DNA of 64,000 nucleotides from Mollicutes bacterium (GCA_003552925.1 PUOX01000057.1:34-64033), one strand, 5' to 3'; counted from the stretch's first letter, positions 23,285-44,432 are shown. The notes: generated by a model not told the origin, from the letters alone. Made by a program: numbers and translations.

Positions 23285-23316
23285 GTAGCCCGCCAGCAAG
23301 GCGGGCTACTTTTTTT
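23285..23316 (+). terminator. rho-independent terminator inside the sugar cluster
   Basis: GTAGCCCGCC-agcaa-GGCGGGCTAC hairpin followed by TTTTTTT. Confidence 0.8.
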
Positions 23317-23341
23317 GGACTATGACTTAAGGAGTGAAAAC

Positions 23342-24196
23342 ATGCTGAAAACGACAAAGGAACTGTTGAGCGAAGCGCAAAACAAGGGATATGCCGTTCC
23401 GCAGTTTAACGTATACAATCTTGAAACCCTTCGTAGCGTGGTTGAAGCCGCAGAAGAAATGAACAGTCCAGTCATTCTCGCGGTGACACCTGGTACGAGG
23501 CGCTTTTCAGGAGATGCGTACATGCACGCCCTTGCGCATACCGCCGCAAAAGTGTCGTCTGTGCCCATTGCCTACCATCTCGACCATCATACCTCCATAG
23601 TAGATGTGGTGCCATCTTTAAAGCTCGGTGCGAAATCCATCATGATCGACGCTTCGATGGAAACGTTTGAAAACAATGTACGTATTGTCAAAGAAGCGGT
23701 GGAAACCGCGCATGGCTATGGGGCTTCCGTGGAAGGCGAACTCGGGAAGTTGATTGGCACTGAAGAGGACATCACAGTAGAAGAAGGCGAAGACGCCTTG
23801 ACTGACCCTGAAATGGCGAAAGAATTTGTCGAACGAACGGGAGTGGATACGTTGGCGGTTGCGATCGGCACGGCACACGGCCTTTACAAAAGCAAACCGA
23901 ACCTGGATTTTGACCGGCTGAAAAAGATTCGTGAAGCGGTCGATGTTCCGCTCGTGCTGCATGGAGCTTCCGGTGTTTCCGAAGAAGATGTGCGCAAGTG
24001 TATAGCGTACGGCGTTTCGAAAGTGAACATCGCCACTGAGCTAAAAATTCCCTTTGCCGAGGCTTTGAGAGATTATTTCAAAGCGCATCCGAACGAACAA
24101 GATCCGCGGAAATACTTCACGCCCGCAAAAGAAGCATTGAAAGAAGTCGTTTTGCAAAAAATTCGTATGTGCAAAAGCGAGGGGAAAGCCCTATGA
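23342..24196 (+). CDS. class II tagatose-/fructose-1,6-bisphosphate aldolase (KbaY/GatY family)
   Basis: YAVPQFN near the N-terminus, HLDHH zinc-ligand motif, GTAHG. AGGAG RBS. Confidence 0.85.
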   Translation: MLKTTKELLSEAQNKGYAVPQFNVYNLETLRSVVEAAEEMNSPVILAVTPGTRRFSGDAYMHALAHTAAKVSSVPIAYHLDHHTSIVDVVPSLKLGAKSIMIDASMETFENNVRIVKEAVETAHGYGASVEGELGKLIGTEEDITVEEGEDALTDPEMAKEFVERTGVDTLAVAIGTAHGLYKSKPNLDFDRLKKIREAVDVPLVLHGASGVSEEDVRKCIAYGVSKVNIATELKIPFAEALRDYFKAHPNEQDPRKYFTPAKEALKEVVLQKIRMCKSEGKAL

Positions 24197-25119
24197 TTAT
24201 CACAGTTACCCCGAACCCTGCGCTTGATCGGATGTATTTTGTGGATGCGTTCGATTTTAAACAGGGCCATCGCGTTGACAACTTCAACGTGACCGCCGGC
24301 GGAAAGGGACTCAACGTCACGAAAGTCCTTGACGTACTTTCGTGCGATGTACTTGCGACAGGTTTTCTTGGAGGCATGGAGGGGAAGGCCATAAAAAGCA
24401 AGCTTTCTTCGACCAACGCTGAACTGGCGTTCGTTGACATTGAGCAGCCTAGTAGGACAACCATCAGCATTGCCGATCAAAACGGAAAAACGTTGGAACT
24501 GGTTGAAAATGGTCCGACGATCCATAAGCATGAACAAGCGCTTTTTGAACAAGGGTTTTTAGACAACCTAGCGAAAGGGGAAGTCGCCGTCTTTTCCGGA
24601 AGTTTGGCGCGCGGATTGCCTGAAGGCTTTTATCGCAAACATGTCGATATGGCAAAGCGGGCCGGTCTTTTCACCATTGTAGACGCTAGCGGCGAGACGC
24701 TGCGCGAGAGCTTGAAAGCCGGGCCCGATTTAATCAAGCCCAACCTTGAAGAACTCGAATCCTTGTTGGGGAAACGGCTGGATTCGACTCGGGCTATTGT
24801 CGACGCCTCACGCGAACTCATGGCCATGGGGGCCGGGAGTGTCGCGGTGTCTTTAGGCGCTTCCGGCATGGTGTATGTCGATGGCGAGGCGGCTTACCGT
24901 GTTGAGGTCCCCGCCGTTGATGTTGTCAGTCCCGTCGGTTCCGGCGACAGTGTAGTGGCCGGGTTTGCGTATACGCGCATACATCAGAGGTTGACGGAAG
25001 AGACTTTGGCTTTCGCCAACGCTTGCGGCGTCTCGAACGCCATGAATAACGAGATAGGTTCAATCAAGCTTGAGGACGTATTTGAACTCCAATCCCGCAT
25101 CAAGGTTACGAAGCTGTAA
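24193..25119 (+). CDS. PfkB-family hexose-phosphate kinase (tagatose-6-phosphate kinase / 1-phosphofructokinase type)
   Basis: MIITVTPNPALD...AGGKGLNV N-terminus and GSGDS near the C-terminus. ATGA overlap with the aldolase gene. Confidence 0.85.
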   Translation: MIITVTPNPALDRMYFVDAFDFKQGHRVDNFNVTAGGKGLNVTKVLDVLSCDVLATGFLGGMEGKAIKSKLSSTNAELAFVDIEQPSRTTISIADQNGKTLELVENGPTIHKHEQALFEQGFLDNLAKGEVAVFSGSLARGLPEGFYRKHVDMAKRAGLFTIVDASGETLRESLKAGPDLIKPNLEELESLLGKRLDSTRAIVDASRELMAMGAGSVAVSLGASGMVYVDGEAAYRVEVPAVDVVSPVGSGDSVVAGFAYTRIHQRLTEETLAFANACGVSNAMNNEIGSIKLEDVFELQSRIKVTKL

Positions 25120-25183
25120 GCGAACCCTTTTTCAAATGGGGTTTTGTAGGGTATAATGTAGGTAGAATAAGAGGTGGTTGAAC

Positions 25184-26320
25184 ATGCTTTTGACAAACTT
25201 GAAAGCGGTGCTTCCCGATAGTATCATGGAAAACGCCGCCATAGAAATTGAAAACGGAAAAATCGTGGGCGTCCGGCCTTGGAACGGTGAAGAAGGTGCG
25301 GATTTAAACGGTGCGTATGTGCTTCCGGGATTCATCGACACGCACATTCATGGCACTGACGACGACGACGCCATGGACCAAGACCCGGCGGCGCTGGAGA
25401 GAATCTCAAAAAACGTTTTGCAAGAAGGCACCACCGCTTTTTTGGCCACGACCATGACCATGGCTCAAGAAGACATTGAAAAAGCCCTTCGCGCCATCTC
25501 TTCCGCAAAATCTCCGGGCGCTAGACGCTTAGGCGTTCATTTAGAAGGCCCCTTCATCAGCGAAACTTTCAAAGGCGCGCAAAACGCCAAATTCATCGTC
25601 AAAGGTTCGCCGGAACTATTTGAAGCTTTCAACGAAGCCGCCAACGGCGAGATTCGTCTTGTATCTTTGGCCCCCGAAGAACAAGACTCTGCGTTTCTCG
25701 ATTATTTGGTGGAAAAGGGCATTGTCGTTTCCATGGGGCATTCGGACGCCACCGCCGACGATGTTCGTAAAGCCATCGATCACGGCGTAAAACGGGTCAC
25801 GCACTGTTACAACGGCATGTCAAAACTTCACCATCGCGATTTGGGGCTCACCGGCATGGCACTTTACCGCGACGACATCATGGCCGAAATCATCGCCGAC
25901 AAGATTCATACATCCCAAGAAGCGTTGGATTTTTTCGCCAAAAACAAGCCCGTTGACCAAATCACCTTGGTTACGGATTCCATTCGTGCGAAGAATTTGC
26001 CCGATGGCGAATACAACCTTGGCGGACAAGAAATCTTTGTCAAAAATGGGGTTTCCAAGTTAAAGTCCGGCTCCATTGCCGGCAGCACCCTTCGGTTGAA
26101 CGATGGCTTCAAAAACATGCTGGAATCGACACGGTTAGGCATCGTCGAACTGGCTAGGGCAGCGAGTACGAACCCTGCAAGAACTTTGGGCATAGACGAT
26201 GCGTTTGGAACCATCGAAGCGGGCAAAACCGCCGACCTCACCATCTTGGATGAAGATTTGAACGTTCTCAAGACGATGGTTGAAGGCGAGTTCCGCTATG
26301 AAAGCGAACAGCGTCCTTGA
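25184..26320 (+). CDS. nagA: N-acetylhexosamine-6-phosphate deacetylase (NagA/AgaA family)
   Basis: PGFIDTHIHG metal motif, HLEGPF and GHSDA motifs of the NagA amidohydrolases. Confidence 0.85.
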   Translation: MLLTNLKAVLPDSIMENAAIEIENGKIVGVRPWNGEEGADLNGAYVLPGFIDTHIHGTDDDDAMDQDPAALERISKNVLQEGTTAFLATTMTMAQEDIEKALRAISSAKSPGARRLGVHLEGPFISETFKGAQNAKFIVKGSPELFEAFNEAANGEIRLVSLAPEEQDSAFLDYLVEKGIVVSMGHSDATADDVRKAIDHGVKRVTHCYNGMSKLHHRDLGLTGMALYRDDIMAEIIADKIHTSQEALDFFAKNKPVDQITLVTDSIRAKNLPDGEYNLGGQEIFVKNGVSKLKSGSIAGSTLRLNDGFKNMLESTRLGIVELARAASTNPARTLGIDDAFGTIEAGKTADLTILDEDLNVLKTMVEGEFRYESEQRP

Positions 26321-27408: not shown

Positions 27409-28074
27409 GTGAAATTGTTGATTGTCGAAGACGAGGACTCTCTTCGAAAAGCGCTTGTCAAAGGGTTTGAGAAGTCCGGCTATGCGGTGGATGAGGCTAA
27501 AGACGGTGACGAAGCTGTCGATTGTTTTTTCAGCGCGCATTATGATGTGGTTGTGCTCGATTTGAATCTTCCGGGAAAAGATGGAATCGACGTGTTGCGA
27601 GAAATACGCCAAGAGGACGAGTTCATCAATGTCTTGATTCTTTCGGCTCGCAGCGAAGTAGAAGACAAGATTGTAGGGCTGGATTCCGGCGCAAACGATT
27701 ATCTTGCGAAGCCCTTTAGTTTCAAGGAACTGCATGCAAGGGTCCGTGCACTTGCCAGACGAGACTACTCCGACAAAGGAAGCGTCATCGAAAGCGGCCC
27801 TGTCGTTTTGGACATGTCTCTGAAACGGGTGCTTTACGAAAACCAAACCGTGCCGTTGACGAAAAAAGAATACGGCATTTTGGAATACCTGATGGTCAAC
27901 CGTGGAAAAATCGTACGCGGCGAAGATTTGATCGAACATGTTTGGGACAGCGATGCCGACGCTTTTTCCAATGCTTTCAAAGTGCATTTGACGTCTTTGA
28001 GAAAGAAGCTTCCGAAGGGTTTTATCCGGACGGTGAGAGGTGAGGGATATTATGTGGAAAAACGTGACGCTTAA
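27409..28074 (+). CDS. OmpR-family response regulator
   Basis: Receiver domain (LLIVEDED, VVLDLNLPGKDG) and winged-helix output (RTVRGEGY). GTG start after a GGAG RBS. Confidence 0.85.
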   Translation: MKLLIVEDEDSLRKALVKGFEKSGYAVDEAKDGDEAVDCFFSAHYDVVVLDLNLPGKDGIDVLREIRQEDEFINVLILSARSEVEDKIVGLDSGANDYLAKPFSFKELHARVRALARRDYSDKGSVIESGPVVLDMSLKRVLYENQTVPLTKKEYGILEYLMVNRGKIVRGEDLIEHVWDSDADAFSNAFKVHLTSLRKKLPKGFIRTVRGEGYYVEKRDA

Positions 28075-29131
28075 AAACAAAGTCGCTCTGCTAAACGGGG
28101 TTTCGTTCGTCGTTTTGAGCGTAATGTTGGCCGCTTTACTTATTGTTCGTGCAGAAAGGCTGTTCTCTTATGAACGGTTTGAAGATGCGACGGATTTTGA
28201 AGCGACAACTGCGCAAACCGAAAATATTCGCATCTTTTTCGCCGAAGCGTCGACGGCCTATGTCGTTCAAAGCGCAATTATTGTGGTGTTTTTCGTCGTC
28301 GCAGGCGCTTGTGCCTTATGGTTTTTGAGTCGAAAAATGGTGTTGGCGGTGAGCGAGTTCGCCGCCAGCGTCGAACATATCGATGCGGACAATTTGCCGA
28401 AAGAACTGCGTGTTCCGTACAATCACCCCGAAATCGACCGCTTGGAGAACGCCTTCAACAAAATGCTTTCCCAAATCGACATTACCATGGAAAGCCAAAA
28501 GCGCTTTGTGGAAAACGCCGCGCATGAGCTTAAGACGCCCATCGCTTCAATCATGACGAATCTTGAAGTGTTGGAGATGGAAGAATCCCCGGACCATGAA
28601 GATTATGAAGAAGTGTTCAATATGGTCAAAGAAAGCGCGGAGAGAATGAACGCACTCGTCAAGGATCTTTTGACCATGACGCAACTCGCCCAAAAGCAGG
28701 ATGAAGCGTTTCATTTCTCGGAGATGACGTTGATTCCACATGAGCTTCAAGCTTTGATTGATGAGAAGAACATCGATGTTGATATTCGGGGAGATGCCAG
28801 CATAAAAGGCAGCAAGCCCCTCATGGAGCGTGCGTTTCAAAACCTTATCCACAATGCGGTGCGCTACAACAAGCATGACGGCGCAGTTCGAATCTATGCC
28901 AACAGTGAAAGCGTCACCATCTCCGATACGGGCCCCGGCATTCCCAAACAGAAACTCGGCAAAATCTTTGAGCCGTTTTATTGCGCGGACCCCTCGCGCT
29001 CTCGAGAACTCGGCGGAAGCGGCTTGGGCCTTTCCATCGTGAAGCAGATTCTCCATCTTCACGACATGGAGGTTTTGGTCGATAGCGAAGAAGGAAAAGG
29101 CACGACATTCACGGTTCATTTGAAATCTTAA
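28052..29131 (+). CDS. sensor histidine kinase
   Basis: Two TM segments, H-box AAHELKTPIASI, N-box HNAVRYN, G-boxes DTGPGI and GGSGLGLSIV. It overlaps the end of the RR gene. Confidence 0.85.
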   Translation: MWKNVTLKNKVALLNGVSFVVLSVMLAALLIVRAERLFSYERFEDATDFEATTAQTENIRIFFAEASTAYVVQSAIIVVFFVVAGACALWFLSRKMVLAVSEFAASVEHIDADNLPKELRVPYNHPEIDRLENAFNKMLSQIDITMESQKRFVENAAHELKTPIASIMTNLEVLEMEESPDHEDYEEVFNMVKESAERMNALVKDLLTMTQLAQKQDEAFHFSEMTLIPHELQALIDEKNIDVDIRGDASIKGSKPLMERAFQNLIHNAVRYNKHDGAVRIYANSESVTISDTGPGIPKQKLGKIFEPFYCADPSRSRELGGSGLGLSIVKQILHLHDMEVLVDSEEGKGTTFTVHLKS

Positions 29132-29220
29132 CCGATTCTTAACCTCCTTTTTGTTACCATCAAAGGTGCAAACGGGAGGTTTTTCTTTTGCACAAATCTA
29201 TCAAAGAGGAGAGAACAAGT

Positions 29221-29721
29221 ATGAAAAAATTGTTTGCGTTTATTCTAACCGGTTTGTTTGCCCTGACGCTTACTGCGTGCGGGGCACCAGAAAACAGGGT
29301 GTTGGAAGAGGATCTTGAAACCATTTTGGAAGACATTTACGCGTACGACGGCTTAAGCGAGGATGCGGAGTCTTTCGTATCCGGTCTTACGGTTGAAGAA
29401 GTCAGCGCCGATGACGCCGATTTTCATCTCGGCAAGGACGGATTGGCTTTCGACCGTGCCATCGCTTCCGTTCCTTCTTTAGGCACCGCGCCTTTTGAGT
29501 TGACGCTTGTCCGCACAGAAAGAGGACAGGATGTTGAAGGGCTCAAGGACGATATTCGCGACAACATCGACCCTTGGAAATGGGTCAGTTTCGGAGTGGA
29601 AGATGAAAACGTCGTAGTGGACAACATCGGCGATGTGGTGGTCATTATCATGAGCGATGATTATGCTCATGAACTGCACGATGCGTTTCTCAATCTTGAA
29701 CCTGAAGAATCCCAAGACTAA
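29221..29721 (+). CDS. DUF4358-like lipoprotein
   Basis: Lipobox MKKLFAFILTGLFALTLTAC. An acidic ~145-aa mature domain of the kind usually found next to MBOAT/DHHW genes. Confidence 0.55.
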   Translation: MKKLFAFILTGLFALTLTACGAPENRVLEEDLETILEDIYAYDGLSEDAESFVSGLTVEEVSADDADFHLGKDGLAFDRAIASVPSLGTAPFELTLVRTERGQDVEGLKDDIRDNIDPWKWVSFGVEDENVVVDNIGDVVVIIMSDDYAHELHDAFLNLEPEESQD

Positions 29722-29740
29722 AACAAAGTAGGCGAGCAAC

Positions 29741-31144
29741 ATGGTGTTTTCCAGTGTGAATTTTCTGTACTACTTTTTGCCGATATTGCTGCTCGTGTAT
29801 TTCAGCGTTCCCAGCAAAGGGAAGAACCTGGTGTTGTTTCTTTTCAGCCTAGGGTTTTATTACTACGGCGAACCGGTGTATACGCTATTGCTTCTATTTT
29901 CCTCCGTTTCCGGCTATGTGCACGGATTGTTGATCGAACGCTCGCGGAACACTCGGTTCGCCAAGGTTCCCTTGGTATCCTCGATTGTGTTTGGCTTAGG
30001 GGCGCTCGGGTTTTTTAAATATTCCGATTTCTTTTTGGAAAATGTCAATCGGTTGTTTGGTGCCGATTACGGACTCATTGGCGTGGTTCTTCCCATTGGC
30101 ATCAGTTTTTACACGTTTCAAGTGCTTTCTTACACCATCGATGTGTATCGAGGGAAGGTCGGCGTGCAACGGAACCTTTTGGATTTCATGACCTACGTCG
30201 CTTTGTTTCCGCAGTTGGTTGCCGGGCCCATTGTCCGATATGAGACCATCGAAAACCAGTTGAAAGCCCGCAAACATTCGGTTGAAGATGTTTATGTCGG
30301 CGTCAAACGGTTCATGGTCGGTTTGGCGAAAAAAGTGTTGATCGCGGATACCTTGGCGGAAGTCGTGGCGCATTTTGACTCCGCTCATGAACTGTCCGTC
30401 TTGTTTTACTGGCTTATGGCCATCGCTTTCACTTTGCAGATCTATTACGATTTTTCAGGATACAGCGATATGGCGATTGGACTGGGAAGAATATTGGGCT
30501 TTCGCTTTTTGGAGAACTTCAACTATCCCTACATCGCCAAAAGCGTTACCGAGTTTTGGCGGCGCTGGCACATTTCACTAGGAGAATGGTTCCGACGCTA
30601 TGTGTACATCCCTATGGGTGGAAACCGCGTGAACATCCTTCGTTTCATTAGAAATCTCTTGGTTGTGTGGTTTTTGACAGGCTTCTGGCACGGCCCCGCC
30701 TGGAACTTTGTGGTCTGGGGCTTGATGTATGGTGTGCTTCTGATCGTAGAAAAACTGTTCATCAAAGATAGGATGGAATCCGTCCCGGCCGTTTTGCGCC
30801 ATGCATATGTGATGTTCGTGGTGGTCATCGGTTTCGTGCTTTTTAACGCCGACAGTTTGCAAGAAGGCGTAGGCAACATTATGGGGTTGTTCGCCTTGCG
30901 CGACGTTCCGCTTTCGAACGTTGAATCGCTTTACTTTTTAAGAAGTTATGCGGTTGTGATTGTTCTGGCCATCTTCGGTTCAACACCGTTGCTTCGAAAT
31001 GCTTTGACGTTGTTCCAAACAAAACCGTTTTTGCGCAAGAGCATTTGGGCGCTTGAGCCGGCCATGGTTTTAGTGTTGCTTGTCATGGTCACAGGCAATT
31101 TGGTGGATGGAACGTTCAATCCGTTTATTTACTTCCGGTTTTGA
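29741..31144 (+). CDS. MBOAT family O-acyltransferase (AlgI/DltB-like)
   Basis: Polytopic protein; conserved FWRRWHISLGEWFRRYVYIPMGGNR segment including the catalytic His. Confidence 0.9.
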   Translation: MVFSSVNFLYYFLPILLLVYFSVPSKGKNLVLFLFSLGFYYYGEPVYTLLLLFSSVSGYVHGLLIERSRNTRFAKVPLVSSIVFGLGALGFFKYSDFFLENVNRLFGADYGLIGVVLPIGISFYTFQVLSYTIDVYRGKVGVQRNLLDFMTYVALFPQLVAGPIVRYETIENQLKARKHSVEDVYVGVKRFMVGLAKKVLIADTLAEVVAHFDSAHELSVLFYWLMAIAFTLQIYYDFSGYSDMAIGLGRILGFRFLENFNYPYIAKSVTEFWRRWHISLGEWFRRYVYIPMGGNRVNILRFIRNLLVVWFLTGFWHGPAWNFVVWGLMYGVLLIVEKLFIKDRMESVPAVLRHAYVMFVVVIGFVLFNADSLQEGVGNIMGLFALRDVPLSNVESLYFLRSYAVVIVLAIFGSTPLLRNALTLFQTKPFLRKSIWALEPAMVLVLLVMVTGNLVDGTFNPFIYFRF

Positions 31145-31159
31145 TGAAAGGAGTTCATT

Positions 31160-32257
31160 ATGCGTAAACAATTGCATCAAATCACCGTTGTTTTGGTCTT
31201 CGTTGTCGCGTTGTTTTCGGGAATGCTTATGAATGTCGTTTCTTCGGATGTCGAGTATTCCGAAGAAGAAAGGCGAAGATTGAAGCGTTTCCCCGCTCCA
31301 TCGGTTGAAGATTTGCTTGACGGTGGATATTTTGAGTCCTTGGAGATGTATTCGCTGGATCAGTTTCCGTTCCGTGAGACGTTTAGGACGATAAACGCCA
31401 TGACAAGGTTGAATCTCTTTCGTCAGGCCGATGTGAACGGGTTGTACATAGTCGACGACGGAGTGTATCGCCTGCGGTATCCTTTGGACGAGAGTTCCGT
31501 CCATCACGCCGGCGAACTGTTCCATACCATCTATGAAGAGCATTTCGCCGGCCATGATGTTTTCTTTAGCGTTGTGCCGGACAAGAACTACTTTGTCGCT
31601 CCGCAAAACAATTATCCGCATATGGATTACGCTTCGCTTGTCGGAATTTTGCGGGAATCGCTCGGTGCGTTTGAATACGTAGACATTTTTGAAAAGTTGG
31701 AGATTGGCGATTACTACCGGACCGATCACCATTGGCGACAAGAGCGAGTTGTGGGCGTGGCGGATTTTATGTTGGAATCCATGCGAGGCAGCGCCCCTAA
31801 CCGTGATGCCTACGAAATGCATACGCACGCGCCGTTTAGAGGCTCGTATTATGGCCACGCCTCGATGCCGTTGAGGCCGGACACTTTGACCTATTTGACC
31901 AACGACACGATCGAACGTTCCTATGCATTCGACCCTGTGAACGAAGAGGCGCGGGATATTTATCACAAAGACGCCTTGGAAGGCGTCGATCCCTACAATG
32001 TCTTTCTGGGAGGCGCCCAACCGTTTTTAGAACTTGTCGATCCCGAGGCTTCAAACGACGAAGAGTTGATAGTGTTCGGCGATTCTTATGCGAACAGCCT
32101 CGTTCCGCTTTTGCTTGAAGGGTACTCGCGGGTGACCCTTGTGGATCTTCGACACGTTTCTCCCGATTTATTGGACCAATACATCGATATTTCAACGCAA
32201 GATGTCTTGTTTATGTATTCAACAAGCATATTGAACGACAGCCGGGTGTTGGATTGA
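31160..32257 (+). CDS. DHHW family protein (AlgX/AlgJ-like SGNH partner of MBOAT)
   Basis: N-terminal TM anchor and a literal YYRTDHHW motif. Confidence 0.8.
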   Translation: MRKQLHQITVVLVFVVALFSGMLMNVVSSDVEYSEEERRRLKRFPAPSVEDLLDGGYFESLEMYSLDQFPFRETFRTINAMTRLNLFRQADVNGLYIVDDGVYRLRYPLDESSVHHAGELFHTIYEEHFAGHDVFFSVVPDKNYFVAPQNNYPHMDYASLVGILRESLGAFEYVDIFEKLEIGDYYRTDHHWRQERVVGVADFMLESMRGSAPNRDAYEMHTHAPFRGSYYGHASMPLRPDTLTYLTNDTIERSYAFDPVNEEARDIYHKDALEGVDPYNVFLGGAQPFLELVDPEASNDEELIVFGDSYANSLVPLLLEGYSRVTLVDLRHVSPDLLDQYIDISTQDVLFMYSTSILNDSRVLD

Positions 32258-32262
32258 CAATG

Positions 32263-32290
32263 AAAAGGCCGCTATTTATGCGGCCTTTTT
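32263..32290. terminator. bidirectional terminator between convergent operons
   Basis: AAAAGGCCGC-tatttat-GCGGCCTTTTT; overlaps the stop of the minus-strand gene. Confidence 0.8.
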
Positions 32291-33122
32291 AATGTGCGAT
32301 GGGTTTTTTCGGGGGCTGCTCCGGATGCAAGGTGGGAGAGTAAAGCGGATTGTCGAAAGCGATTTTGCTGAAACAAGCGAACAGTTTGTCTTTTAGCGTG
32401 TTTAGTTTCCTTCGCTCCGAATCGCCAGGCTGTAAAGACGGAGGCTTTTTTTGGTTCTCGTAAAGGTTTCGGTTGATTTCTAGTTGAAACCATGGAAGGT
32501 TGTTGACTTTGGCCATGGTTTGGATGATTTGTCCGCCTTGAAAGGGTGTGTTGAGTTGCACGCTGCCCTTGCCGAACGTTTCTTCTAGCAGCGTTTTCAC
32601 ATCCGTCAAAAGTTTGGCAGGACAGGTTAAGGCTTCACCTGCAAATTCGCCTGCGTCGTTGCCGCGGTTGGAAAGGCAAAATAAGGGCCGCTCGACGGCG
32701 TTTTTGTCGAAGGGGTCTTTCGGCAACATGCTGTGGCAGTCGATGCCGATTTTGACGGAAGGATCATGTGCGGCTTTATGAAGCTTCTTGTAGTATGGGT
32801 CGTAGTAGGTTCTCAGGATATCGGCCAAGGTTTTCCCTTGGGGAAACGATTTCCAAACCGGGTTTTGAAAGAGGGTAATTTGTTTGATGACTCCGTCGGG
32901 GCGAAAGTCTGTCTTGCTTCTGTTGAGGTCGACGATCAACCTGGGGATGTCGGTTGTGATGGTCCGGGCGACTTTGTGGCCGAAATCGTAGATGTAACGT
33001 GTCCATAAGTCTCCGTCCAAAAGCGTCTCTTGCGGGGAAGGCAGGAAAGATTCGATTAGAGCTTTCGGCACATGCATGCCGCCGTGTGGAACGGAAAGAA
33101 GAAGCGGAAGTGGTTTTTGCAC
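32289..33122 (-). CDS. N-formylglutamate amidohydrolase (FGase) family protein
   Basis: SVPHGGMHVP, IVDLNRSK and IGIDCHSM motifs in the order expected for PF05013-type amidohydrolases. GTG start after a GAGGTG RBS, 4 nt past the GGT stop. Confidence 0.7.
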   Translation of the reverse strand: MQKPLPLLLSVPHGGMHVPKALIESFLPSPQETLLDGDLWTRYIYDFGHKVARTITTDIPRLIVDLNRSKTDFRPDGVIKQITLFQNPVWKSFPQGKTLADILRTYYDPYYKKLHKAAHDPSVKIGIDCHSMLPKDPFDKNAVERPLFCLSNRGNDAGEFAGEALTCPAKLLTDVKTLLEETFGKGSVQLNTPFQGGQIIQTMAKVNNLPWFQLEINRNLYENQKKPPSLQPGDSERRKLNTLKDKLFACFSKIAFDNPLYSPTLHPEQPPKKPIAH

Positions 33123-33126
33123 GCAA

Positions 33127-34728
33127 TCACCTCGGACCGGATGCCGATCCGTCTCTGCGCGGATCGGCGACGCCAATATGTTTTTTGAAATTCGACATCC
33201 TGGGAAGCTCGATTGCTTGCACGCAGCCTAAGTAGAAGCTGTATGCGCCGCGTTTTTTTAGAGAAAATCCCGTTTCTTTGAAGAGGGTGATGGTTTCGGG
33301 GTGGAAGCGTGAGAGTTCCAGTTGGAGCTGTTTTTTCTCGGTGGTATGGAACCTGGGGGCGGTGATGGCTTCATCGAGAGGTTCATTCATATCGAGGTAT
33401 CTGACCAACACTTGCGCCAAGGCGGTGGCGATGCGGTCGCTGCCCGGGCTTCCCAGCACCAAAAGCGGACGTTTTCGGTAGGTGACGATTGTCGGGGCGA
33501 CGCTGCTCCAAGGGCGGTTGCGGGGGAGCAGATAATAGGGATGTGTCTTGTCGTTGTATTCGTAGGCGCTCATGTAGTTGTTGTAGAAAAAGCCCAATCC
33601 TTTGGCGGTACGCTTCGCGCCAAAAACCCTCTCAATCGATTGGGTGACGGCGACGATGTTACCGTGGGAGTCCGTGACGGAGAAGTGGGTGGTTTCACCG
33701 GATGGGGTGGTTTGGAGGTGTGTTTGCGGGACGTGCCGATAAAGGATTTTGTCGATGGTTTTTTTGATGGTTTCTGCGTGGCTTTTGTCGGTCATTTTGC
33801 GTACGCTTTTTTGGAAGTAGATGTCGGGGTTTTGCGGCATTCTTTTGCGGTCGCGGAGGGTGAGCTGAAACGAAAGCGCGAGAATCAGGTTGCCTAGTGG
33901 CGTGTTTGGATCGATCTCGTCGGTGTCGAAGAGTTCGAGTATGTTTAACAGCTGCACCAAAACGCGTCCGGCGCCCGGAGGCGGGAACGTGACGATGCGG
34001 TAGTTGCGGTAGCTGCCTTCTAAAGTTTCGCGTTCGATGGGCGTTGGTATTTGGGCGAAATCTTCGCTGCGGAGCCATCCGTTGCGAATTTTCATGTCTT
34101 CGACGATTGTCTCGGCGAGGGTTCCCCGATAAAAATCTTTCCATCCGTTTTTCACAATCAGGCGCATACAATGCGCGAGTTCTTTTTGGCGGAAGACCTT
34201 TCCGACTTGCAAGGGAAGGTCGTTTTTGAAAAAAATGTTTCGAATTTGATCGTCCTTGATAAGTTGGCTTTTGTTCTTTTCAAGGGCGTTATGGATAAGG
34301 GGGGTGATTTTGACCCCGTTTTCGGCCAACTCAATCGCCGGTTGCAAAAGAGCTTCGATGGGCATGCTTCCGTAGACATCGTGTAGGTAGCCGTAAAAGG
34401 CCACGGTCGATGGAAGAGTGGATGCGCTGAGTCCGACTAGTTTCGGACTTTTGGGCGCTTTTGAGGGTTGATAGTGGTAAGGGGCGAACGAAGAACCGTC
34501 CAAGGCGAAATACCGTTTTCTTTCGGCGTGGTAAATAAGCGCCATTGATTGACCGCCGATGCCCGATGCTTGCGGTTCGCTGACGCCAAGCGCATAAGAA
34601 ACGGCAACGGCCACATCAAAAGCGTTTCCGCCGGCTGAAAGGATTTGCGCACCGATTTCGGATGCGTAAGAAGAAGCGCTCGACACCATGCCGTTTTTGC
34701 TTGAATGCATCGGCGATTTTCGTTCCAT
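33127..34728 (-). CDS. ggt: gamma-glutamyltransferase family protein (no signal peptide)
   Basis: N-terminus ...SSYASEIGAQILSAGGNAFDVAVA, autoprocessing/nucleophile site GETTHFSV, GSPGS motif. The start is set at the ATG with an AAGGAG RBS just after the upstream stop. Confidence 0.9.
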   Translation of the reverse strand: MERKSPMHSSKNGMVSSASSYASEIGAQILSAGGNAFDVAVAVSYALGVSEPQASGIGGQSMALIYHAERKRYFALDGSSFAPYHYQPSKAPKSPKLVGLSASTLPSTVAFYGYLHDVYGSMPIEALLQPAIELAENGVKITPLIHNALEKNKSQLIKDDQIRNIFFKNDLPLQVGKVFRQKELAHCMRLIVKNGWKDFYRGTLAETIVEDMKIRNGWLRSEDFAQIPTPIERETLEGSYRNYRIVTFPPPGAGRVLVQLLNILELFDTDEIDPNTPLGNLILALSFQLTLRDRKRMPQNPDIYFQKSVRKMTDKSHAETIKKTIDKILYRHVPQTHLQTTPSGETTHFSVTDSHGNIVAVTQSIERVFGAKRTAKGLGFFYNNYMSAYEYNDKTHPYYLLPRNRPWSSVAPTIVTYRKRPLLVLGSPGSDRIATALAQVLVRYLDMNEPLDEAITAPRFHTTEKKQLQLELSRFHPETITLFKETGFSLKKRGAYSFYLGCVQAIELPRMSNFKKHIGVADPRRDGSASGPR

Positions 34729-34738
34729 GGACATCTCC

Positions 34739-36889
34739 TTAGTCTTCATTGATTGCGAGCAAATATTGTGTGAGCAACATCGTTTTTTGGACAAGTTCGG
34801 TGCGATTGATGGATTCTGTTGGGGTGTAGAGATTCTTTGTGCTTGGCGCCATGCCGCAAATGACCGGTGTCTTATCATCGACCATGCCGGCCGCTGAAGG
34901 AAGCAGGGTGGATTCGCTTGTGAAAGGAAGTTTCCATTCTTCGGCGATGGCTTCAAATTTTTTCAGAAGTTCCTTCGTGCCTTCCTTTTTCAACATCGGC
35001 GGTCGTTCTTCAAGTTTTTCAAAGTACGTTTTAATGCCTCTTTGTCGCGATTGGAAAAGCTTGTGGATGCTTTTTTCCGCGTCTTTCGCTTTTTGGGGGT
35101 CCGTATAGGTGACGATAACGGTGGCGCTGACGCGGTGGGGCACTAACAGGGCATACCTGGAAGTCTCGATGTTTTGCACCGACACGGAAAGGAGAGGCGA
35201 TTTTTGATCCAACACTTTGAGTTCTTGGGTTTTGGAAAGCAAGTAGTCCAAGGCGTTTACGGTGTAGTTTTTGGCGCCGATACGTTTGGGCGTCCCTTCG
35301 ACGACCACCTTGATTTTGCTTGCGCCTCTTCGTTGGTAGATGACGCTGTTGGGGTTGTATCCTGGGGCCATCACGACGACTTCTTTCGCTTGCTTGCTCG
35401 CTTCTTTGAGCGCAGGACCGCTGTAGCGCATGCCGTGGCCTTCATCGCCGTAGACGAACACGCCGATTTTTTTGTTTGCGAGTTTGCCAAGGAGCCGCAA
35501 AGCGTCCAACGTTTTCAGTGCAACCATAAGACCGCCACGACTAGAGGCGATGCCTTCGCCGAATATGCTTTCCGGTTCTTTGCGGAAGGGAATCGGATAA
35601 GCGCCACGATGGCCGGGTATGTCGATAGGGACTACAAGCAACACACCGTCTTTCAAGCCATCATTTGTGGTAAACAGCCAATGGGACGTATCGTCGCTGC
35701 GCGAGCGTTCTTTGAGAATCTCCATCTTTTTCAGACGGTATTCAAGTTTCCGGATGAACGTTTGTTTGGCGACCAAATCGTTCGTTGCGGTGTAGAGGTT
35801 GGTGAGGCTGCGAAGTTCGCCTTCCATGCGGTCGCGGTTTTGGGTGATGAACGAAAAGGCCTGCGAGGCTTCGCCGGAACCGTTTTTACCTGTGTCGATC
35901 ACGGGGCCGAAATACCTTTGCGAGGCAACATCGATGATCCGTTGAATCAAACGTTCATAGGAAAGCCCTATCGCACTGGCCGCTTTGACGAAAGAAGAAT
36001 TAAGGCCCAAAGAGGCCATCGAATTCACTTCAAGCACGTAAGGATTGCCGGAGTCGTCTACTCTGAAATCCACTCTGGCGCTGTCGTAGCACCCCAAAGC
36101 TTTGAACGTGCGAATCGCCAAATCTTGGAGTTTTTTGGCGAGGGGTTCGTCGATGTCCGCGGGGCAGATGGATTGGATGCGCTTGAGGACTTTTCCGGTT
36201 TTGTCTTCGTAAGTGTAAATTTTTTCACCGGAATCGAAAAGCATTTCCAAAGGAGGCAGGGCTTCGACGGGATTGTTGCCCAAAAGGGCTACGTTGAACT
36301 CGCGTCCGTCCACATACTCTTCGACGAGCGTGGGCGATTTGAACTCGTTAAAAATGTTTTCGACGCCGGCTTTGAGTTCCTCTTGCGTCCTTACGATGCG
36401 CAAGCCGAACGACACGGCTTCATTTTTCGGCTTCACAATGAGAGGAAACTGCAAGGCTTCGTCCAGCCGACTCTCAGGGGTCTCAAGCACGGCAAACTTC
36501 GGCGTAGGAATCCCCCGTTGCATAAGAATCATCTTGGTGATGACCTTGTCGAGCGCAATGGCGTGGGTTTCGGGTCCGGAGCCCACATACGGAATGCCGA
36601 GCATTTCAAGTATCGCGGGAATGTGCATGTAACGCCCTTTTCCCTGGATGCCGTAGCTCAAGTTGAAAACGAGTCCGGGCCGTTCACCGGATAGCACGCG
36701 GGGCATGAACTTTTCCAAGTTCGCCACAATATTTTTGTCGCCTTCAAAAAGCCTGACCTGATGGCCGTGCTCCACGAGGGCGTCTTTGACTTTTCGGATG
36801 GTGCTCATGCCGTACTTTTCTTTGTTGGGGATGCCGAAGAGGTTGATGACCGCTTGCGACTCCCGGTTGTAGACGATGGCTATTTTCAT
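34739..36889 (-). CDS. fusion protein: D-Ala-D-Ala-ligase-like ATP-grasp ligase (aa 1-330) + M20 (carboxypeptidase G2-like) peptidase-homology domain with substituted metal ligands
   Basis: ATP-grasp features: LIVKPKNEAVSFG, EEYVDGREFNV, ARVDFRVDDSGNPYVLEVNS. The C-terminal half is colinear with the M20 motif order (GEGIASSRGG, GDEGHG, ...). Confidence 0.8.
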   Translation of the reverse strand: MKIAIVYNRESQAVINLFGIPNKEKYGMSTIRKVKDALVEHGHQVRLFEGDKNIVANLEKFMPRVLSGERPGLVFNLSYGIQGKGRYMHIPAILEMLGIPYVGSGPETHAIALDKVITKMILMQRGIPTPKFAVLETPESRLDEALQFPLIVKPKNEAVSFGLRIVRTQEELKAGVENIFNEFKSPTLVEEYVDGREFNVALLGNNPVEALPPLEMLFDSGEKIYTYEDKTGKVLKRIQSICPADIDEPLAKKLQDLAIRTFKALGCYDSARVDFRVDDSGNPYVLEVNSMASLGLNSSFVKAASAIGLSYERLIQRIIDVASQRYFGPVIDTGKNGSGEASQAFSFITQNRDRMEGELRSLTNLYTATNDLVAKQTFIRKLEYRLKKMEILKERSRSDDTSHWLFTTNDGLKDGVLLVVPIDIPGHRGAYPIPFRKEPESIFGEGIASSRGGLMVALKTLDALRLLGKLANKKIGVFVYGDEGHGMRYSGPALKEASKQAKEVVVMAPGYNPNSVIYQRRGASKIKVVVEGTPKRIGAKNYTVNALDYLLSKTQELKVLDQKSPLLSVSVQNIETSRYALLVPHRVSATVIVTYTDPQKAKDAEKSIHKLFQSRQRGIKTYFEKLEERPPMLKKEGTKELLKKFEAIAEEWKLPFTSESTLLPSAAGMVDDKTPVICGMAPSTKNLYTPTESINRTELVQKTMLLTQYLLAINED

Positions 36890-37046
36890 ACAATCTCCTA
36901 TTTCTATACAGCCCTTGATTAAGGCGTGAATTGGCAGTTTTGCAAGCTTTTTTGAAGTTAATTCATTTTACTACAATCTACAAAAAATAGATACTTCTTT
37001 TTCTTGTTTTTTCGTATTTTTGGAAATTGTGTATAAAAAGGCAGAT

Positions 37047-37073
37047 AAAAAGCCCCGGAAGAACCGGGGCTTT
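37047..37073 (-). terminator. rho-independent terminator of the SDR gene
   Basis: Minus strand reads AAAGCCCCGG-ttctt-CCGGGGCTTTTT. Confidence 0.8.
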
Positions 37074-37088
37074 GAAGCGTGTTTTGAA

Positions 37089-40785: not shown

Positions 40786-40949
40786 TTTGGTATCAAAGCA
40801 TGTTCTTTACATACGCATAGAAGGTTTCATCAATGGGTACTGACCCATGGTGCGCCGTTGTCTGGCTTGTATTTTTTAGCGTCTTCACGCTTAATCTTAT
40901 GAGTGTCAGGGAACGGTTTTTTTCTCAAAAAAATAATGGGGGAGTGTTT

Positions 40950-43900
40950 ATGAAGAAGATTTTTATCGTAGCATTGATGTTGTTGACATCTTTGTCGATA
41001 GCGGCATGTGCTCGAAGAGCCGACCAAGTGACGGTCACACTGACTAGTGAACTTGAGGAAGCGACACTAACCGTTTCGCCTTCGGCCACGGTTGATGTGG
41101 ATACCCAAGTGACAGTAGAGGCCTCCGAAGTGGCGGGATACACCTTTGCACATTGGAAAAATGTGGAAACCGGCATCGAAGTGTCCACAAACCGGGTGTA
41201 TACATTCCCGGCGGTGGCCAGTTTGACCCTTGAGGCGGTATACACAGAAGATGTCGCGATTGCGGATGTTGACACAACCTTAACAAGCGCTTTGGCCTCC
41301 GCGGTGTTGACGAAAACGCCGACCGGCCCTGTGGCTCCCGGCACCGAAGTGACCATCGAAGCTTCGAGCGTTTCCGGGTATGAGTTTGTGCATTGGTGGG
41401 ATGAGGACGCAAACGCTGTGTTTGCCGAAACCGCCGTGTATACGTTTGTGTTGAGCGAGGACAAGAATCTTGTGGCGGTGTACGTTGAAGAAGGCGTTGA
41501 AGTCGTTGACATTACGTTTGAAAGCGACACTACTGAAGCCGTGATGACAATGACGCCCATCGGACCTGTCGCAAAAGGCACCGAAGTAACCATTGAAGCG
41601 TCGAGTGTCACGGGATACTTGTTTCTGCACTGGCTGGATGTAGGTGCCGACGCTGTTTTGGCGGAAACCAAGTCGCATACTTTTACACTGAACACCAACA
41701 TGACGCTCAAGGCTGTATATGAAGAAGAACCAACCGATCCGGATACTGTAAACGCGACTCTTACCAGCAACATCGTTGATTCCGTCATGACCATGACACC
41801 CACCGGTCCGGTCGCGCCGGGTACGGAAGTGACCATCGAAACCAGCGAAATGGAAGGGCATGTGTTCCTGCATTGGTGGGATGTATACGCGGATGCCCTA
41901 TTTGCCGAAACGTTGACACACACTTTCACACTCAACGAAGATATGAACCTCAAAGCCGTCTACATCACCGAAGCGGCGCATCAAGCCGCATTGGTGCTCG
42001 CGGACTTTGACGGCGGGTTGGGCCATCTTGAAACTTTGATGGCAAACTTCATGACCACTGACGCTTTTGCTTTAGAATTCGTGATGGTCATGGAAGTTGA
42101 TGACAGTGGAATGATACTCAGCAATGGCGGTGAAGACCATGAAATGCGTTTGACCTATCGCAACGTCAAAGACGGCGACGTAACGATGCACGAGTTGAAA
42201 GTGTACGCGAAGCTGCCCGATTTTGACGGTCCGGGTGACGCCTTGGACCTACACTTCATCGTTATCGAACATCCGGGGCATGTCGAAATGTATGTCGATG
42301 TCGGCATCTTGTTGGATCAGCTCACCATGGAAACCGGATTGAACCTGAGAGTGCTTTTGGGGTTCCAAAACGATTACGTGTATGTGAATTTGCCGCATGA
42401 ACTCGCGGGCGAATTCTTCGAGGAAATTTTGGCCATGTTTGAAGAAGAAATGGACGAAATCGGTTTCGACCCCGACCTCTTTGATGACGTATTGGCCGAG
42501 CTTCATCGTTTCGAGAAATACTTCACACTTGATTATTTTGAAGACCTTGAAGACCTTGATGTGGACATGGAACAAGACGACACCCACATCCATACCATTA
42601 TGATTATGAATTCCGCATTGGTCAAGACGATTTTTGAAGACATGTTTGAAGATGTTTACGCCATCGCCTATCTCATCGCTGAAGAAGGCGAACTTCCACC
42701 GTATGAGGATTTCATCGCTTCGTCCGATTACGCCGAATTGATGCTTATGCTCGGCATGATGGAACCCTTCCCGATGCGGATGATTTACGAGCCGTACAGC
42801 GAAGACTGGATGCGCATGCATCTTGACCTCCGTGAAATTTTGGAACCTTACGGCGACGGCATGGACTTCATCGAGGCATTCTACATCTCCGTGGACGCTT
42901 ATACGTACGCTGAAATTACGTTGCCCGATGACGCCAAAGACATCACCGATTTGGCAAAGGAAATGTTGCAATTCGCGTTCATGATGGAGATTGTGCAGTT
43001 TTCCTACAGTGTGTTTAATCAGCCCGACGTGCCTGAAGACACACACACCCTTGCCGATTTGGACGATATGGGATACTCTTTCGGAATGCCGTTCATTGAC
43101 CGCGAGTTGAGCACCGTCACCGCGATGGACGACAAAACAGATTTCGAACTGGATTTCTATTTGTCCAGCAACGGAGAGCCGCTTTTCCATACGCCGATTT
43201 CGCTGGCGATGCTGGAAGACGTCTTCGACTTTGGCGACCCTAGCGAATTGGACCGCGAAGCGTTCTTGGCCATCATCGATTTGATCGATGAAGACAACAT
43301 TTCTTTGTACTTGATTGCGAAAGAGTTGCTGGTGTTCTTAGAAGAAATGTTGCAGGACCCGGAAGTGCCGGATTTTGACCTTTACGACGAATTGATCCAC
43401 GATATTCCGCGTTACCCGGAGGCGGTGATTGTCAGAACCTATGACGAGGGCGACTATGGCAGTTACGAAGTTCATTATGTCGTGGAAAGCTCAGTAAGCA
43501 GCGCGTACGACCATTTCATGAATTTCTTTGACGGAAGCCCGGGCTGGGACGTCATGGTGGTGCAAAACGACCCCGACCGCTTTGCGATGCAAGCGTGGCA
43601 TGATGACGAAGAAAGCACGATATTCTTTGTCGAAGTCCGCGATCGTTCCGGCTATCAAAACGCGATACTGATTCAAGTGACCAAGACCTTTGATCCGGTC
43701 TCCAGAATCCCTGACGACGATTATGACGGACTTGAGGATATTGCAGGGTTTCCGCGTTACCCGGGAAGCGTCATTACTTTCGGATGGGAAAGCAGTGAAA
43801 ACGTGTACATAGAATATGTCGCGCCCGACACAGAACCTTTTGACGTTTGGGATTATTTTGACAGACTTTCTTTAGAGCCTGGATGGAATTTTGAGGACAG

Positions 43901-44432
43901 CGAATATGAAGACGGTTACGGCATGGTGTTTTTCACCAGCGACACACACGAGCTTTGGATTCATGCATACCATAGTGATGAGTTTCCAGGCGCTACGACG
44001 TATCATCTGAACTTAAATGAAATTGTTGCACCGGATTTTCCCGACGAGGATCTAATCGATCTTGACGATATTGACGGTGTGCCCCGTTATACCGGAAGTT
44101 TCTTGGTGGATGGATACGGTTCGGAGGATGATGGGGAGCTCGATTGGCATCGCCTCTATCTTGTGGAGAACATTGCAACTTTGAATGTGTATTTGTTCTA
44201 TTTTGAAGGCTTAAACGCAGATGAATATTGGTTTAACATCCGTTGTGGTTTTTCTATCGCAGACGATTGGGGCTGGCTCTATTATTACTCTCATACTCAT
44301 AGTTTGTATATTAGATTCAACTACGATGATACATTTGCCAATGCCGTTCGGATTCACATTGATTACGATGAGCGTCACCTTCCTGAAGACATTAGTGTTG
44401 CATCTCCTTATCTTGACAGTTTGCTTGCCTGA
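40950..44432 (+). CDS. giant acidic surface lipoprotein (4 InlB-B/Listeria-Bacteroides-type repeats, helical acidic region, PRYP modules); ends at an in-frame TGA
   Basis: Lipobox MKKIFIVALMLLTSLSIAAC after a GGGGGAG RBS. The reading frame continues past the TGA at 44430-44432 into ORF 44475..45026. Confidence 0.8.
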   Translation: MKKIFIVALMLLTSLSIAACARRADQVTVTLTSELEEATLTVSPSATVDVDTQVTVEASEVAGYTFAHWKNVETGIEVSTNRVYTFPAVASLTLEAVYTEDVAIADVDTTLTSALASAVLTKTPTGPVAPGTEVTIEASSVSGYEFVHWWDEDANAVFAETAVYTFVLSEDKNLVAVYVEEGVEVVDITFESDTTEAVMTMTPIGPVAKGTEVTIEASSVTGYLFLHWLDVGADAVLAETKSHTFTLNTNMTLKAVYEEEPTDPDTVNATLTSNIVDSVMTMTPTGPVAPGTEVTIETSEMEGHVFLHWWDVYADALFAETLTHTFTLNEDMNLKAVYITEAAHQAALVLADFDGGLGHLETLMANFMTTDAFALEFVMVMEVDDSGMILSNGGEDHEMRLTYRNVKDGDVTMHELKVYAKLPDFDGPGDALDLHFIVIEHPGHVEMYVDVGILLDQLTMETGLNLRVLLGFQNDYVYVNLPHELAGEFFEEILAMFEEEMDEIGFDPDLFDDVLAELHRFEKYFTLDYFEDLEDLDVDMEQDDTHIHTIMIMNSALVKTIFEDMFEDVYAIAYLIAEEGELPPYEDFIASSDYAELMLMLGMMEPFPMRMIYEPYSEDWMRMHLDLREILEPYGDGMDFIEAFYISVDAYTYAEITLPDDAKDITDLAKEMLQFAFMMEIVQFSYSVFNQPDVPEDTHTLADLDDMGYSFGMPFIDRELSTVTAMDDKTDFELDFYLSSNGEPLFHTPISLAMLEDVFDFGDPSELDREAFLAIIDLIDEDNISLYLIAKELLVFLEEMLQDPEVPDFDLYDELIHDIPRYPEAVIVRTYDEGDYGSYEVHYVVESSVSSAYDHFMNFFDGSPGWDVMVVQNDPDRFAMQAWHDDEESTIFFVEVRDRSGYQNAILIQVTKTFDPVSRIPDDDYDGLEDIAGFPRYPGSVITFGWESSENVYIEYVAPDTEPFDVWDYFDRLSLEPGWNFEDSEYEDGYGMVFFTSDTHELWIHAYHSDEFPGATTYHLNLNEIVAPDFPDEDLIDLDDIDGVPRYTGSFLVDGYGSEDDGELDWHRLYLVENIATLNVYLFYFEGLNADEYWFNIRCGFSIADDWGWLYYYSHTHSLYIRFNYDDTFANAVRIHIDYDERHLPEDISVASPYLDSLLA
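41028..41966 (+). repeat. four tandem ~78-aa coding repeats (TLTS....LT.TPTGPVAPGTEVTIEAS.V.GY.F.HW.D....A.FAET..YTF.L....L.AVY)
   Basis: Seen directly in the translation. The GY.F.HW core resembles Listeria-Bacteroides / InlB B-repeat domains. Confidence 0.8.

Follow-up and report, generated by a model that had tools for sequence, protein, structure and literature searches.

A three-gene operon with a fused ATP-grasp ligase, a GGT-like and an FGase-like protein, nearly confined to alkaline habitats and possibly acting on a glutamate-based amide

Related systems and the layout of the operon

An ATP-dependent amide ligase that is coupled to a hydrolase for the same class of bond is a concept represented by the glutathionylspermidine and trypanothione synthetase-amidases (PMC2427367). 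We report an operon of three genes that would share this concept, located in a 64,000-nt stretch of DNA from a Mollicutes bacterium (GCA_003552925.1, PUOX01000057.1:34-64033), which is referred to below, at its full length, as the window. The hydrolase of the synthetase-amidases is a CHAP domain, whereas here the ligase is fused to a pseudo-M20 domain, predicted to be catalytically dead, and is accompanied by a gamma-glutamyltransferase-like (GGT-like) protein and by a protein of the N-formylglutamate amidohydrolase (FGase) family. The trio recurs in distant lineages, and the module is nearly confined to organisms of alkaline habitats. Tentatively, we read it as cytoplasmic machinery that builds and dismantles a small glutamate-based compound held together by amide bonds.

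Like gene 1 of this operon, GshF fuses a Ddl-like ATP-grasp module to another domain; in contrast to GshF/GshAB, gene 1 carries no gamma-glutamylcysteine ligase domain, and 3ln6 matches its ATP-grasp part only (E 7.6e-5). Poly-gamma-glutamate (PGA) metabolism, as represented by GGT, CapD and PghP/PghL, likewise employs GGT-family and carboxypeptidase-like hydrolases that act on gamma-glutamyl amides. The PGA-degrading Bacillus GGT lacks the lid loop, as does the gene 2 product when compared with the E. coli and Bacillus GGT structures, and a PGA_cap protein adjoins the ligase in a single related locus (L046), one of those with the ligase alone. The operon differs from the PgsBCA/CapBCA systems in that no Mur-ligase-type PgsB, PgsC or PgsA is found in it or among the conserved neighbours of related loci, in that the trio appears to be soluble and cytoplasmic, and in that its ligase is of the ATP-grasp and not of the Rossmann type.

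The region of the trio was read on the reverse strand to fix starts, stops and ribosome-binding sites (RBS). Gene 1 (34739-36889, minus strand) extends from an ATG at 36889 to a TAA at 34741-34739, encodes 716 aa and is preceded by AGGAG at 36899-36895. Gene 2 (33127-34728, minus strand) begins with an ATG at 34728, 10 nt after the gene 1 stop, which is overlapped by an AAGGAG, and ends with a TGA at 33129-33127 (533 aa). Gene 3 (32289-33122, minus strand) begins with a GTG at 33122, from which 4 nt separate the gene 2 stop, and its own stop is a TAA at 32291-32289 (277 aa). Longer starts that were called mechanically, TTG 34956 and TTG 33176, receive no support from the N-termini of homologues and were rejected. 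An intrinsic terminator (hairpin and T-run, approximately 32259-32290, minus strand) lies 3' of gene 3 and also faces a convergent DHHW gene; the hairpin has a folding energy of -17.2 kcal/mol (z = -5.98), and none of 200 shuffled sequences folds equally well. On the other side, gene 1 is preceded by an AT-rich intergenic region of 200 nt (36890-37088, minus strand; RBS AGGAG at 36895-36899), the presumed promoter or 5' untranslated region (5' UTR). An earlier note on this DNA, made from the sequence alone, had described three minus-strand genes with gaps of 10 nt and 4 nt, bracketed by a terminator and an AT-rich upstream region, and this layout is confirmed by the open reading frames (ORFs), by reading of the sequence and by the fold of the hairpin. 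Because the preceding short-chain dehydrogenase (SDR) gene has its terminator within the upstream spacer, at approximately 37046-37070, the trio is a separate transcription unit, and, as far as sequence can tell, its three genes form one operon.

A strict scan of the upstream spacer for the sigma-70 consensus found no promoter, and an Rfam search of the same spacer (36890-37088) found no family near threshold. Comparison with a relative of 77% identity (36890-37000, minus strand, versus 7890-8000 of L004) revealed the conserved blocks GATTGTAGTAnAATnAATTAAC and AAACTGnCAATTC, and, directly 5' of the RBS, a small palindrome, CCTTAnTnAAGG, that is common to the two sequences compared. The blocks and the palindrome could serve as promoter, as operator or as part of a 5'-UTR element. 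An open frame of 506 aa runs antisense to gene 1 (35174-36694, plus strand), and further long antisense frames cover genes 2 and 3. These frames lie within well-supported genes and are most likely non-coding shadows.

The three proteins

The N-terminal half of the gene 1 product (aa 1-330; 35900-36889, minus strand) is a Ddl-like ATP-grasp domain. That this half is of the Ddl type, as the earlier note had held, is borne out by the Pfam match to Dala_Dala_lig_C (PF07478, E 3.6e-41). Its AlphaFold2 (AF2) model aligns with Ddl structures at TM 0.7-0.84; Ddl provides the best matches both in the PDB and in Foldseek, and identity to the solved Ddl structures is approximately 25-28%. Well over 100 full-length fused orthologues, of 711-733 aa, were found. 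We aligned 74 orthologues with E. coli DdlB (from NC_000913.3). The residues that serve ATP, Mg and acyl-phosphate (K97, K144, E180, E187, K215, R255, D257, E270 and N272 in DdlB numbering) are kept in all 74, so that the ligase half has the same fold and the same set of such residues as Ddl and VanA, and it is predicted from these residues to be catalytically active. Because the catalytic residues are intact, acyl-phosphate ligation chemistry is expected, with substrates that we infer below.

The ligase half departs from Ddl in several respects. It has a 10-residue N-terminal insertion, YNRESQAVINLFG, and is followed by a fused pseudo-M20 domain of 385 aa. Its D-Ala1 pocket is replaced: E15, which falls within the first ~30 residues, where the alignment is less secure, becomes R or K, E68 becomes K or R, S150 becomes V (71 of 74), and Y216 becomes K, T, I or V. 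Since residues that hold the ammonium group of D-Ala1 have given way to Lys or Arg, the acid substrate is probably N-blocked and/or carries an extra carboxylate; the activated acid would probably be, for example, an N-acyl-glutamate, or a gamma-glutamyl chain activated at its C-terminal residue. At 185.9 bits, the best Ddl model of NCBIfam, NF002378, falls short of its cut-off of 243, and every Ddl/Van equivalog is far below its cut-off. With this score and with a replaced pocket, the ligase half is not the housekeeping Ddl that the earlier note had considered as an alternative; it appears to be an active ATP-grasp amide ligase of another kind.

The C-terminal half (aa 331-716; 34742-35899, minus strand) resembles carboxypeptidase G2 (CPG2), with the metal site lost and the dimerisation domain kept. 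The M20 homology proposed in the earlier note stands: M20_dimer scores 25.7 bits against a Pfam cut-off of 21 (E 1.2e-5), and CPG2 is matched both by the single sequence (E 1e-5) and by the family profile (E 1.3e-12), with Peptidase_M20 at 22.1 bits, under its cut-off of 24.6. The plain description as M20-like does not stand, given what has happened to the zinc ligands. These were mapped by alignment to the CPG2 structure 1cg2 and then followed through the columns of the 74 orthologues. H112 of CPG2 corresponds to P421 in the window protein (P in 61 of 74), D141 to S449 (S in 65), E176 to G484 (G in 72) and E200 to A508 (Q, H or A in the family). The general base E175 is kept, as E483. The region of the fifth ligand, H385, is not alignable, and the candidate positions hold Y or T. 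Because almost every member has other residues in place of these zinc ligands, this half is not expected to be a metallopeptidase; with four of the five ligands lost, it is by its residues a pseudo-peptidase. In other words, it has the catalytic and dimerisation layout of CPG2 and the other dimeric M20 metallopeptidases, including the general-base Glu, but is without H112, D141, E176 and E200 and is fused to a ligase.

The pseudo-M20 half is nevertheless strongly conserved, with invariant arginines R451, R488, R520, R521, R586 and R696, and in the family its median isoelectric point (pI) is 9.16, versus 5.39 for the ligase half. Most likely, the domain has been kept for dimerisation and for the binding of an anionic ligand, which we infer to be a C-terminal glutamate. 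The fused family is small, comprising 30 clusters at E < 1e-30 among 1.84 billion representatives. More divergent ATP-grasp-M20 fusions (P0181, P0207 and P0259; 22-24% identity in the M20 half) have partly degraded metal sites, in which H-x-D is still present and the bridging Asp motif is found in one of the three. In the wider superfamily of fusions, the loss of the peptidase site seems to have proceeded step by step.

Gene 2 encodes a leaderless Ntn hydrolase of the GGT family, with Thr346 as the predicted nucleophile (codon 33691-33693). G_glu_transpept (PF01019) matches over the full length (E 4.9e-114), and TIGR00066 is barely above its cut-off (358.6 versus 357.85). The nucleophile context GETTHFSV, noted earlier as intact, is indeed conserved across orthologues, and T346 is kept in 56 of 56. 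We tested the residues that bind the alpha-amino and alpha-carboxylate groups of the substrate (R114, N411, Q430 and D433 in E. coli; R113, E423, E442 and D445 in B. subtilis), and the sole one kept is E366, which corresponds to E423 of B. subtilis. The position of Q430/E442 is occupied by Y385 (56 of 56), that of D433/D445 by A388 (53 of 56) and that of Arg113/114 by S79; an Arg is found two positions on in 43 of 56 orthologues, where the window protein has Phe. In addition, Ser replaces the second oxyanion Gly. The change of N411 to Glu was dropped as a departure from GGT, as Bacillus GGTs carry Glu there too.

No export signal was found in any of the 52 full-length GGT-like orthologues, consistent with the cytoplasmic location proposed in the earlier note: the conserved core is preceded by 6-19 hydrophilic residues, with no hydrophobic stretch. 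None of the three trio proteins has a signal peptide or a transmembrane segment, and all are predicted to be cytoplasmic. The view that a leaderless GGT is in itself unusual did not hold, given that leaderless GGTs are documented in extremophiles, and that intracellular YwrD of B. subtilis, along with GGTs of Geobacillus, Thermus and Deinococcus, are leaderless cytoplasmic members of the family with no known role (PMC8062742). The gene 2 product is nearer to E. coli GGT (E 6e-71) than to 2nlz of B. halodurans (7e-45) or 2i3o of Thermoplasma (2e-33). It differs from the leaderless GGTs by a pocket signature of its own (Y385, A388 and S430) and by a genetic tie to the fused ligase; it is this conserved altered pocket and this linkage that are novel in gene 2, the location alone being already known.

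The gene 3 product matches FGase (PF05013, E 4.7e-34), as do all 19 of its orthologues. The PHGG, DLNR and DCHSM motifs of N-formylglutamate amidohydrolases, which the earlier note had recognised, are present and conserved, and H13, D36, D38, R61, D65, N67, R68, D128, C129, H130 and E215 are invariant in the 19 orthologues. TIGR02017 (HutG) reaches 62.2 bits against a cut-off of 278.75, and no hut genes were found among the conserved neighbours of related loci. Judging by these matches, gene 3 encodes an FGase-family amidohydrolase that is not a HutG equivalog. In the PDB its sole relative is 2q7s, an FGase (profile E 2e-12). This structure and 2odf, likewise of the FGase family, are reported to be structurally closer to the gamma-PGA hydrolase PghL than any others except PghP, the homologue of PghL (PMC6506827). 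A PghP-type PGA hydrolase was considered for gene 3 and rejected at the level of sequence, with no Pfam match besides FGase found even to E 5.

Distribution, habitat and possible function

A scan of one genome per species yielded 85 relatives, 80 loci of which were kept. Gene content was counted by tblastn and ORF clustering at the 51 loci that had 2.7 kb or more of flank on each side, and the counts refer to the locus only. The full trio is present at 26 of these 51 loci, the ligase with the GGT-like gene at 8, the ligase with the FGase-like gene at 1 and the ligase alone at 16. Two gene orders occur: ligase, GGT-like, FGase-like in the Izemoplasma-like clade and in one deltaproteobacterial metagenome-assembled genome (MAG), and GGT-like, ligase, FGase-like in Bacillaceae, Clostridia and a Sandaracinaceae MAG. 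The adjacency that the earlier note described is thus not unique to one genome. Since, in addition, the ligase half is no housekeeping Ddl and the GGT-like protein shows no export signal, the core idea of that note, an intracellular module that makes and breaks a compound, withstands the refuting conditions named there. GGT identity tracks ligase identity (76 versus 77%, 62-66 versus 62-65%, and 50-53 versus 52-56%), and no further gene family is conserved around the trio among related loci. In the literature searched we found no description of the trio, of ATP-grasp/M20 fusions or of alkaliphile GGT/FGase links, in line with the remark of the earlier note that no characterised pathway has this combination.

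Two MAGs contain a pair of paralogous fused ligases each, L052 and L077 in SKOR01, and L061 and L067 in JAEIOD01. One ligase copy of SKOR01 is accompanied by a GGT-like gene only and the other by an FGase-like gene only, a hint that each hydrolase can work with a ligase copy of its own.

The most notable addition to the earlier reading is the near-restriction of the module to alkaline habitats. At least 51 of the 80 loci, in raw counts uncorrected for phylogeny or sampling, belong to alkaliphiles in culture or to MAGs of soda lakes or serpentinite sites. Cultured carriers include Alkaliphilus, Evansella, Alkalihalobacterium, Salipaludibacillus, Alkalicoccus and Anaerobacillus, as well as Desulfitispora alkaliphila, Anaerotalea alkaliphila, Heliorestis and Serpentinicella; no neutrophile was found among the named cultured carriers of the 80 loci. 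MAGs from Kulunda or Cock Soda Lake account for 24 loci and the CROMO serpentinite site for 2, and the closest relative, with 77% identity, is a soda-lake MAG labelled Mollicutes. The orthologues of the GGT-like protein give the same picture as those of the ligase. Because the carriers come nearly all from alkaline habitats, the role of the module is probably tied to life at high pH.

The earlier idea of a cycle that makes and breaks a small gamma-glutamyl or D-amino-acid peptide is plausible, and the evidence points to glutamate chemistry over D-alanine or a thiol. CPG2 removes the C-terminal Glu from N-acyl-Glu, and GGTs and class-I glutamine amidotransferases (GATases) attack a gamma-glutamyl amide via a gamma-glutamyl-enzyme, releasing an amine or ammonia. 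As the nearest characterised relatives of all four domains act on glutamate amides, a glutamate-based amide is the simplest product that would unify them. In the reading that we favour, if with less than even confidence, the Ddl-type half would use ATP to phosphorylate a carboxylate and would join it to an amine, and the pseudo-M20 half, presumably unable to bind zinc, would be a scaffold for dimerisation and for an anionic ligand such as a C-terminal glutamate. From the chemistry of their families, the leaderless GGT-like Ntn hydrolase would cleave an amide of the gamma-glutamyl type and the FGase-like enzyme one of the N-acyl-glutamate type. All of these specificities converge on gamma-glutamyl-glutamate or a short oligo-gamma-glutamate as a candidate compound, which might, speculatively, serve at high pH as a solute, anionic or buffering, or as a store of glutamate.

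Several observations weigh against such a compound and against a fixed three-enzyme pathway. About one third of the loci have the ligase alone, which indicates that the hydrolases are not obligatory partners, and they may lie elsewhere in the genome. All statements on substrates rest on the chemistry of distant relatives, and the usual product of a Ddl-type enzyme is a dipeptide and not a chain. Of the three alpha-amino-binding residues of B. subtilis GGT, two are missing from the GGT-like pocket, as is the alpha-carboxylate-binding Arg; because of these losses the substrate may differ from an ordinary gamma-glutamyl compound. The full-length AF2 model of gene 1 (pLDDT 69.5, pTM 0.47) is unusable for domain packing. 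It should also be noted that non-alkaline sites (Black Sea, Guaymas and Soudan mine) are the source of a few carriers, and that the habitat association is one of raw counts.

Other readings of the same genes are each less probable. The fused ligase could be a PgsBCA-independent ATP-grasp synthetase of oligo- or poly-gamma-glutamate that serves pH or ion homeostasis in alkaliphiles, although we consider this unlikely. The Arg-rich pseudo-M20 domain would then hold the growing acidic chain, the GGT-like and FGase-like enzymes would shorten this chain from its N-terminus and its C-terminus, respectively, and either the cytoplasmic polyanion or the ATP-driven cycle of making and breaking would itself contribute to homeostasis. 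According to a review, B. halodurans makes L-PGA without pgs or cap genes, and an as yet unidentified L-PGA synthetase of the ATP-grasp type has been postulated for such alkaliphilic bacilli (PMC3815933); if this reading were true, the fused ligase would be a concrete candidate for it. This link is weak: none of the 80 loci kept of the 85 relatives belongs to Halalkalibacterium halodurans, and for this reason the module is probably not its own L-PGA enzyme. About as unlikely is a glutamine-dependent amidoligase, in which a GGT-like or class-I GATase glutaminase subunit hands ammonia to the ligase, as in carbamoyl-phosphate synthetase (CPSase) or MurT-GatD, and the FGase-like enzyme reverses the reaction or trims the product. 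GGTs and GATases both form a gamma-glutamyl-enzyme, and an ATP-grasp enzyme with a GATase is the CPSase arrangement. Stand-alone class-I GATases, which score under every NCBIfam equivalog cut-off, are encoded, as if replacing the GGT, next to the ligase in two loci without GGT (L056 and L070) and, in one more (L067), ~0.7 kb upstream of it. These 3 are, however, all that was found at the 16 ligase-only loci, no GGT-family protein is known as an amidotransferase subunit, a complex or an ammonia channel has no support, and the role of the FGase would go unexplained.

The same GATases weakly match Peptidase_C26, the gamma-glutamyl hydrolase family, which would suit a still less probable role in the glutamylation or deglutamylation of a cofactor: the ligase would add Glu to a pterin, folate or deazaflavin in the manner of MptN or CofF, and the hydrolases would trim or recycle the Glu tail or fragments similar to p-aminobenzoyl-glutamate. 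The fused domain is closest to CPG2, which is a folate-Glu hydrolase, a Pterin_4a dehydratase gene lies directly downstream of the ligase in L022 and L080, and a CofH/MqnC-type radical-SAM gene lies upstream of it in L050. Against this, such neighbours are limited to two loci and one locus, respectively, the conserved core contains no genes of folate or F420 biosynthesis, and the restriction to alkaline habitats is left unexplained. We regard as improbable a variant D-Ala-D-X or stem-peptide ligase of the cell wall, with hydrolases that recycle gamma-D-Glu muropeptides, even though no family is closer than Ddl, GGTs are capable of cleaving gamma-D-glutamyl bonds, and an Amidase_2 gene follows the ligase in L059. 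The D-Ala1 residues are replaced (E15 and E68 by basic residues, S150 by V), all Ddl/Van models are under cut-off, and the conserved neighbours include no mur or van genes; the MAGs of the closest carriers bear the label Mollicutes or Izemoplasmatales, and the proteins all appear cytoplasmic, in a module without a transporter. The database names D-alanine--D-alanine ligase and gamma-glutamyltransferase would suit a chance adjacency of unrelated housekeeping enzymes (a Ddl paralogue, glutathione/GGT salvage and HutG). Mere chance is effectively excluded by the presence of the trio at 26 of 51 loci in two orders, in Bacilli, Clostridia, Izemoplasma-like, Myxococcota and Desulfobacterota-type MAGs, by the missed hutG and Ddl cut-offs and by the lack of hut genes nearby. 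Finally, a peptide tag or a ribosomally synthesized and post-translationally modified peptide was rejected as the product, given that no conserved small ORF, precursor-peptide gene or extra gene accompanies the trio.

Surroundings of the operon and wider meaning

The earlier note had described the trio as rich in K and R among neighbours rich in D and E, and had taken this as a hint of horizontal acquisition. The first part holds for the window, where the three proteins have a pI of 9.1, 9.5 and 9.1. The contrast does not: other cytoplasmic proteins in the window are basic as well. The very acidic neighbours (pI ~4.05, D+E 20-25%), encoded at 13953-16802, 40833-44432, 55256-57100 (plus strand) and 57175-59943 (minus strand), are mostly large proteins with trypsin-like, NosD, InlB B-repeat, S41 peptidase and collagen-repeat domains. 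They are probably surface or secreted proteins, and their acidity, which would be in keeping with the surface proteins of an alkaliphile, probably accounts for the impression of D/E-rich neighbours. Nor do the families of the trio share a basic pI, with medians of 7.2 for the ligase, 8.5 for the GGT-like and 6.0 for the FGase-like proteins; the pseudo-M20 half is the exception. The GC content of the trio (0.51) and its GC content at third codon positions (0.60-0.63) are within the spread of the window, its codon-usage distances rank 13, 17 and 34 of 42 window genes, and the relative of 77% identity has the same flanks, namely an SDR gene upstream and DHHW and MBOAT genes downstream. With this ordinary composition and the preserved synteny, recent horizontal transfer has no support and was rejected.

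Several other features of the window were observed. The genes that adjoin the trio (28040-32257, plus strand) encode a histidine kinase, a small acidic protein, an MBOAT O-acyltransferase and the DHHW protein, and are syntenic in the relative of 77% identity; a response regulator is also called beside the kinase in another locus (L001 12642-16809). This block looks like a unit for O-acylation of a surface polymer and is unlinked to the trio in other lineages. At 16994-18170 (minus strand), an EncFtn-like cargo gene (E 8.9e-37) is followed directly by a gene for an encapsulin shell (Linocin_M18, E 1.2e-70), and by these matches the encapsulin and encapsulated-ferritin genes are a pair for an iron-storage nanocompartment. 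A BCCT transporter of the betaine/choline type is encoded at 10916-12724 (plus strand, E 1.7e-162). A run of ORFs at 18393-26320 (plus strand), including a SIS-domain protein and an amidohydrolase-family protein, may be a cluster for sugar or amino-sugar utilisation.

The current names of the proteins, which extend to thousands of database entries (M20/M25/M40 family metallo-hydrolase, D-alanine--D-alanine ligase, and gamma-glutamyltransferase/glutathione hydrolase), are misleading for this family. The family offers a clean example of a peptidase domain that appears to have been recruited as a non-catalytic module of a ligase, together with a GGT-family enzyme whose remodelled pocket is conserved. 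Alkaline adaptation is now explained mainly by antiporters, adaptations of the ATP synthase and acidic cell walls. If our reading holds, the trio would be a compact three-gene pathway for a glutamate-based metabolite and a near-marker of high-pH life across several phyla, and it would add a cytoplasmic component at the level of metabolites to alkaline adaptation.

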